A stretch of DNA of 16,498 nt. Source: a virus. Lineage: Duplodnaviria > Heunggongvirae > Uroviricota > Caudoviricetes. The notes beneath the pieces were generated by a model. It worked only from the letters and a program-made list of their open reading frames with translations. It ran no database searches and had not been told where the DNA came from. Position numbers and translations under genes: made by a program. How positions within the stretch are numbered: position 1 is the stretch's first letter; each line of letters starts with the position of its first letter. Below are positions 1,615 through 1,761 of the stretch, piece by piece. The stretch lies in IMG/VR virus record IMGVR_UViG_2737471837_000012, positions 1-16,498 of that record; one strand, written 5' to 3'.

Positions 1615-1761
1615 TCACACAACACTCAGCCCACGGCAGTGGCACCACACTTCAAACATTCGTTTCACAATTTCACGACAGTAGAAACCGTCAACATCTC
1701 GCGTCAGGTCATAGCGATTGCCGTAACGCTGGCGTACCCATAGTTCAAACGCTTTATTCAT
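1615..1761 (-). CDS. Small hypothetical protein (48 aa, Cys/His-containing), below the ORF-track size cutoff
   Basis: Hand translation of the minus strand gives MNKAFELWVRQRYGNRYDLTRDVDGFYCREIVKRMFEVWCHCRGLSVV. AAGGAAG Shine-Dalgarno about 6 nt upstream of the ATG at 1761. Fills the gap between flanking genes without overlap. Confidence 0.4.
   Translation of the reverse strand: MNKAFELWVRQRYGNRYDLTRDVDGFYCREIVKRMFEVWCHCRGLSVV

Follow-up and report, generated by a model that had tools for sequence, protein, structure and literature searches.

In phage lambda, the distal part of the early-left operon carries the small genes lambdap35 (55 aa) and Ea8.5 (93 aa) upstream of xis, both of which are non-essential, and Ea8.5 reportedly has a homeodomain/zinc-finger hybrid fold. 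Lambda Kil and cIII are small early-operon effectors of approximately 45-55 aa, which are delayed-early and dispensable and which bind a host protein. In Escherichia coli prophages of the Stx type and of the phiP27 type, a member of the phage protein family PHROG 3871 is encoded between a DUF4222 gene and xis.

The stretch of DNA analyzed in this study (the window; 16,498 nt, IMG/VR record IMGVR_UViG_2737471837_000012) likewise carries a PHROG 3871 gene between DUF4222 and xis. Listed members of this family, such as BP-4795 ORF3 and Fels-1 STM0895.1n, are identical or 73-96% identical to the window protein, and nothing material sets the window copy apart from them. The window protein is comparable to Kil and cIII in its size class and in the mechanism proposed for it below, not in family membership. 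It is unlike the lambdap35 and Ea8.5 products in sequence, with no detectable relationship, as hhalign comparison of the small protein with each of them gave a probability of 0.2%, in the case of Ea8.5 over 11 aligned columns.

Organization and annotation of the early-left operon

The window represents the left arm of a lambdoid prophage that resembles phiP27. The segment 1300-2500 shows 97.2% DNA identity to phage phiP27 and 99.7% identity to an E. coli GB089 prophage whose integration site adjoins yecE/yecN. The minus strand is a single tightly packed operon that runs from an SPFH lipoprotein gene (2451-3278) through a DUF5406 gene (2039-2410), a DUF4222 gene (1765-2007; Pfam PF13973, E 1.1e-15; the 243-nt form called by PGAP), the small gene (1615-1761) and the DUF1233 excisionase gene xis (1370-1606; Pfam PF06806, E 1.2e-32; phrog_539, E 1e-39) to the tyrosine integrase gene at the left end of the prophage (1-1314; Pfam Arm-DNA-bind_2 and Phage_integrase). 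Genes for a CI-type repressor, a Bro-N protein, replication proteins (DnaC-like and DnaB), RusA, a Q-like antiterminator, and AraC-type and TerB-like cargo proteins are located elsewhere in the window. Scans of the minus strand from 1300 to 3400 detected no promoter or terminator consensus and no Rfam match.

The small gene is an ATG...TGA frame of 48 codons on the minus strand (ATG at 1759-1761, TGA at 1615-1617), which encodes MNKAFELWVRQRYGNRYDLTRDVDGFYCREIVKRMFEVWCHCRGLSVV, a protein with Cys28, Cys40, His41 and Cys42. It occupies the 158-nt gap between the DUF4222 gene and xis. Three nucleotides separate the DUF4222 stop codon (1765-1767) from its ATG, and the xis ATG (1604-1606) follows 8 nt after its TGA, which agrees with the first-pass annotation, in which a Cys/His-containing ORF of 48 aa was described as filling the gap upstream of xis.

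A Shine-Dalgarno-like AAGGAAG (1768-1774, minus strand) is located 6 nt 5' of the ATG, within the last codons of DUF4222. Its anti-SD pairing energy of -6.3 kcal/mol places it in the top 6% of positions on the same strand, compared with -6.9 kcal/mol for xis and -7.4 kcal/mol for DUF4222. The site, which had been called strong in the first-pass annotation, is therefore good, not exceptional. An SD-like motif precedes the small gene in 80 of 80 viral loci, and the ortholog in E. coli O157:H7 Sakai has GGAGG at the same spacing as in the window. At the other end of the gene, the TGA overlaps the GAGG Shine-Dalgarno of xis (1613-1616; together 1613-1617, minus strand), and the resulting TGAGGT junction is kept across the 80 viral loci examined. 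This layout lends itself to translational coupling, and the small gene is probably coupled to xis in this way.

The DUF4222 TAA is in frame with the small gene and one codon away from it (TAA AGA ATG; 1762-1767 in the window, minus strand), and the Sakai equivalent is TGA TAC ATG (L032, 1102-1110); read-through or loss of this stop codon would thus yield a fusion of DUF4222 and the small protein. Oddly, 80-aa DUF4222 proteins are grouped with the exact window protein in its 90%-identity cluster.

The GenBank and RefSeq records of phiP27 (AJ298298, NC_003356) leave positions 1636-1793, between L02 (xis) and L03, empty. The first-pass description of the ORF as unannotated is correct for these phiP27 records only, since PGAP calls the same ORF, with the identical protein WP_001030139.1, in the near-identical GB089 prophage, the identical protein is present in UniProt as well, where A0A0B0VPV2 ('Bacteriophage protein') represents the family, and the protein belongs to PHROG 3871. 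Orthologs are annotated as BP-4795 ORF3, Fels-1 STM0895.1n, Sakai ECs_5743 and in JLK-2012, as well as in many Stx phages and in all PGAP-annotated genomes. The small gene is thus already known, as an ordinary member of a catalogued phage family listed as hypothetical protein. No Pfam or NCBIfam model covers PHROG 3871, and a literature search by accessions, locus tags and peptide strings of the small protein returned nothing specific. The phiP27 reference records thus miss a real gene, and annotations copied from them inherit the gap.

The same records differ from PGAP in two neighboring genes. In phiP27, L03 and L04 are annotated in long forms (L002/L003, 1794-2159 and 2068-2511; 1765-2130 and 2039-2485 in the window) that overlap by 92 nt, while PGAP calls a 243-nt DUF4222 gene and a 372-nt DUF5406 gene instead. 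The old L03 and L04 starts are probably over-extended, because the anti-SD energy is -7.4 kcal/mol at the DUF4222 ATG at 2007 and -1.9 kcal/mol at the ATG at 2130. The phiP27 records also lack a second small gene, a 62-aa hydrophobic ORF at 3275-3463 (minus strand), which is annotated by PGAP in GB089. Its product is probably a membrane protein, and the ORF shares 4 nt (ATGA) with the beginning of the SPFH lipoprotein gene.

Conservation, selection and translation

The small protein matches the PHROG 3871 profile over its full length (residues 1-48 on profile positions 1-48 of 48, E 5.7e-36). Its length of 48 aa and its core RYDLTRD..GFYCRE(V/I)VKRMFEVW fit this family, the members of which are about 44-50 aa in length, as does the location of its gene in the early (non-structural) operon of an Enterobacterales prophage. 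The exact window protein was found on at least 1000 public contigs under the names "hypothetical protein" or "Bacteriophage protein". Homologs form 95 clusters across Enterobacterales, including E. coli, Shigella, Salmonella, Enterobacter, Cronobacter, Klebsiella, Citrobacter, Pantoea and Hafnia. The small protein has 515 matches in IMG/VR, and the best 80 of the 515 are all intact 48-aa ORFs.

The first-pass annotation had considered the ORF to be a genuine coding sequence and had named conservation in related prophages and ribosome profiling as ways to check it. The frame was intact in 99 of 99 related loci, comprising 19 of 19 genome loci from at least 10 genera and 80 of 80 viral contigs, the latter being the best 80 of the 515 IMG/VR matches. 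Among 22 distinct DNA sequences, the median dN/dS was 0.11 and the pooled pN/pS was 0.24, with synonymous sites near saturation (pS 0.69). Alternative frames of the same locus had dN/dS values of 1.2-1.7, with the exception of the wobble-aligned antisense frame at 0.35, yet this frame contains two to four stops in every sequence. Variable sites were distributed over codon positions 1, 2 and 3 as 27, 24 and 40 of 44.

Translation was evaluated with published data for the Sakai ortholog, ECs_5743 of prophage Sp15, which is 44 aa in length and 82% identical to the window protein and is located in the same gene order as in the window (DUF4222-ORF-xis-int). The ribosome profiling study of Hücker et al. 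2017 lists this gene as ECs5482 (PMC5597208, S2 Table), and the identity of ECs5482 with ECs_5743 was confirmed by length, position and amino-acid composition. ECs5482 had a RIBOseq RPKM of 38.0, a coverage of 0.83 and an RCV of 0.32 in LB, and an RPKM of 15.8, a coverage of 0.77 and an RCV of 0.38 in BHI (PMC5597208). These values are above the authors' thresholds (RPKM of 1 or more, coverage of 0.5 or more and RCV of 0.25 or more; PMC5597208) in both media. The footprints pertain to the ortholog in an uninduced Sakai lysogen, not to the window prophage. Both checks thus came out in favor of the coding interpretation, the second for the ortholog, and the 48-aa ORF is a genuine small protein gene under strong purifying selection. 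It represents one more conserved, translated early accessory gene in the prophages of Stx type and phiP27 type that pathogenic E. coli and Salmonella carry.

Predicted fold and the Cys and His positions

The family product is a basic, aromatic-rich protein of 44-50 residues. The AlphaFold model of the 48-aa protein (pLDDT 90.6) is a helix-loop-helix hairpin with helices at residues 2-13 and 30-42, and conservation within the family is highest in the loop G-N-R-Y-D-L-T-R-D..G-F-Y and on the hydrophobic side of helix 2.

A fold search of the PDB with the window protein identified no structural relative, and the sole significant match in a viral structure library was a close relative that is 43% identical. 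Pfam and NCBIfam scans of the ORF and of all 42 aligned members gave nothing meaningful; the best match in these scans, Peptidase_C92 (E 0.014, 16 members), is implausible for a 48-aa protein. No excisionase-type winged-helix or HTH domain (Pfam Exc, DUF1233, HTH_17, PrtN and similar) was detected in the small protein, and PADLOC defence models at E <= 0.1 matched neither the ORF nor its seven upstream neighbours. A profile of the 42 members searched against 1.84 billion representatives gave 27 matches, which consisted of the same narrow family and two repeat-protein artefacts. The longer proteins among these 27 offered no functional clue apart from a fusion to Xis, which is described below. 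The only PDB sequence matches were TAL-effector repeats, the 34-residue unit of which has the loose pattern e-v-R-l--V-C--hGL in common with the window protein; this similarity was rejected as an artefact, the sum of 15-23 sub-threshold repeats.

The first-pass annotation had suggested that the C...CHC pattern could bind a metal. If so, the product would be a small metal (zinc) protein in which Cys28, Cys40, His41 and Cys42 chelate a metal that is needed for fold or function, perhaps across a dimer. Three Cys and one His within 48 residues are consistent with this proposal, as is the conservation of the Cys residues, since Cys28 is kept in 84% and Cys40 and Cys42 are each kept in 82% of 115 aligned sequences (the window protein and 114 family members), and members from Pantoea and Hafnia retain the C-x-C pair. 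However, the pattern C-x11-C-H-C offers four candidate ligands in total, without CxxC or CxxH knuckles, and the conservation of these ligands (70-84%) is below that of the aromatic core (93-98%), in which Tyr17 and Phe5 are kept in 98%, Tyr27 in 96% and Trp39 in 93% of the same 115 sequences, with Gly25 kept in 95%. Paired knuckles as the most conserved positions, as in a zinc finger, are thus not a feature of the small protein. His41 is kept in 70% of the sequences and is otherwise Glu, Tyr, Val, Ser or Phe.

Substitutions of the candidate ligands are not confined to rare sequences. Well-populated clusters have C40R, C42R/L/H, H41Y/E or C28S, and the distant members recovered by an exhaustive profile search have Ala or Val at position 28, Ser or Arg at 40, and Ala or Leu at 42; Tyr at 40, Glu, Tyr or Val at 41, and Arg at 42 also occur among the variants and distant members. 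The member that is fused to Xis lacks all four candidate ligands, with no Cys at 28, 40 or 42. In the AlphaFold model, Cys28 precedes the 13-residue helix 30-42 and Cys40 and Cys42 are at its end, so that, judging from the secondary structure of this monomer model, one molecule probably could not chelate a metal with all three. Furthermore, there was no zinc-finger Pfam match, and the comparison with Ea8.5 noted above showed no relationship. The replacements are those expected of small core residues (28 and 42) and of surface residues (40 and 41). The metal-binding idea is accordingly not supported, in view of the absent knuckles, the four ligands, the 70-84% conservation and the Ala, Val, Leu, Arg and Glu replacements, and we consider a metal protein improbable, although metal binding across a dimer in the subfamily of the window protein is conceivable. 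The Cys and His residues resemble ordinary core or surface positions and not a metal site that defines the family. Some role of the Cys residues in the subfamily of the window protein is possible, because they are kept in 82-84% of the members.

Genomic contexts and proposed role

The small gene is located directly upstream of xis in the window, phiP27, BP-4795, JLK-2012, Sakai Sp15, Fels-1 and most genome loci, and such contexts make up about two thirds of the distinct contexts seen. The downstream excisionases are of the DUF1233/phrog_539, phrog_1553, phrog_66, and Pfam Exc or PrtN types, and at one locus a phrog_2917 excisionase is located one gene further downstream. The upstream neighbor is variable, with DUF4222 present in the E. 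coli type only. The junction with the next gene is usually a few nucleotides, such as the 4-nt overlap in L019.

In other contexts the gene does not accompany the integrase module. Three nin-region loci (L018, L022 and PhiR5_2) have it directly upstream of a Q-like antiterminator gene (phrog_753), one locus (L118) has it between NinH and a methylase gene, and another (L116) has it after a helicase gene. In the siphophages CF-SP1 and vB_CfrS_K1M, it is one of a small group of accessory genes situated among tail genes, and neither int nor xis lies near it in the region shown. Co-occurrence with the integrase module is thus not obligatory.

In a metagenomic prophage (L025, 3962-4336; Logan DRR526068 contig), a family member is fused in frame to a DUF1233 Xis. 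The fusion was found on two contigs, has no Shine-Dalgarno before the internal Xis Met, and is followed by an integrase that is 75-80% similar to the window integrase.

The location of the gene upstream of unrelated Xis families, of Q, and in regions without an integrase suggests a portable, non-essential delayed-early accessory protein, and the small size, the fold, and the lack of a match to any catalytic or DNA-binding family suggest that the protein binds a partner. We therefore interpret the small gene as a PHROG 3871 gene of a phiP27-like lambdoid prophage, the product of which is such an accessory protein and probably partner-binding, with a probability of roughly 0.7. The gene belongs to the early-left transcript, in which xis and int come last, and is translated from its own Shine-Dalgarno within the polycistronic message. 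Its translation would probably also deliver ribosomes to xis, because the gaps are 3 nt and 8 nt and its stop overlaps the xis ribosome-binding site. The product most likely binds a partner macromolecule, which may be a host or phage protein or a nucleic acid, and is not expected to be an enzyme or an obligatory component of excision.

The position upstream of xis would also be explained if the protein had Xis, the integrase or a host factor as its partner and tuned prophage excision. The adjacency to xis in most loci, even with an excisionase of another family, the overlap of the small-gene stop with the xis SD, and the natural in-frame fusion to a DUF1233 Xis are consistent with such a modulator. 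However, copies are also located upstream of Q, at NinH and the methylase gene, after the helicase gene, and among tail genes without int or xis; the association of the gene with at least four unrelated Xis families suits a position effect better than a specific partner; and the fusion, which represents one lineage, may have arisen by accidental loss of a stop codon. Because most contexts are beside xis and one lineage carries the fusion, a link to excision is kept as a minority hypothesis, and we regard it as unlikely. A related and still less likely proposal is that the hairpin protein is an unrecognized partner of prophage switch proteins, either Xis or the regulator encoded downstream, and tunes excision or the timing of late-gene expression, which is allowed by the positions upstream of xis or Q, the stop/xis-SD overlap and the one Xis fusion. 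If modulation of excision or induction were to occur, the protein would be relevant to the mobilization of prophages and Shiga-toxin phages.

The overlap with the xis SD, together with the few-nucleotide overlaps with the next gene at other loci, such as that of 4 nt, might also indicate that translation of the ORF serves only to supply xis with ribosomes and that the peptide has no function. A leader of this kind, the sequence of which would be immaterial, is incompatible with the median dN/dS of 0.11 and with near-invariant residues across genera, and the sequence is kept even upstream of unrelated genes; we therefore consider this explanation very improbable. Least probable, to the point of being negligible, is a chance ORF, a non-coding spacer, or a gene on the opposite strand (plus-strand ORFs 1599-1871 and 1472-1684). 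The ORF has 48 codons, is below the usual ORF cut-offs, and is unannotated in phiP27, which would fit a chance ORF, but it is intact at all 99 loci, has ribosome footprints on its ortholog, and is under strong purifying selection in the small-gene frame only. On the opposite strand, the reading frames show either dN/dS values above 1.4 or, in other genomes, stop codons, and no Rfam family matches the locus. An RNA element and an opposite-strand gene were thus ruled out by the Rfam, selection and stop-codon analyses, and the accessory, probably partner-binding protein is preferred.

Several features elsewhere in the window were recorded during the analysis. Rfam matches at gathering level were obtained for the Hfq-binding sRNA isrK (8750-8826, plus strand; 63.6 bits) and, beside it, for the C4 antisense RNA (8851-8938, plus strand; 83 bits). 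Both are located at the 5' end of the ORF 8696-9358, just downstream of the Bro-N ORF (7701-8699), and the arrangement resembles the C4-type control module for immunity and antirepressor of P1/P7. The Q-like antiterminator gene (13597-14145; DUF1133/Phage_antitermQ) is followed by late-operon cargo genes for an AraC-family regulator (14233-15129, plus strand) and a TerB-domain protein (15315-15740, plus strand). A full-length Rfam match to the gammaproteobacterial sRNA STnc100 (15943-16118, plus strand; 93.7 bits) was found in the cargo region past the TerB-like gene. The place downstream of Q that is taken by the AraC/TerB cargo in the window is the one at which phiP27 carries its Shiga toxin genes.
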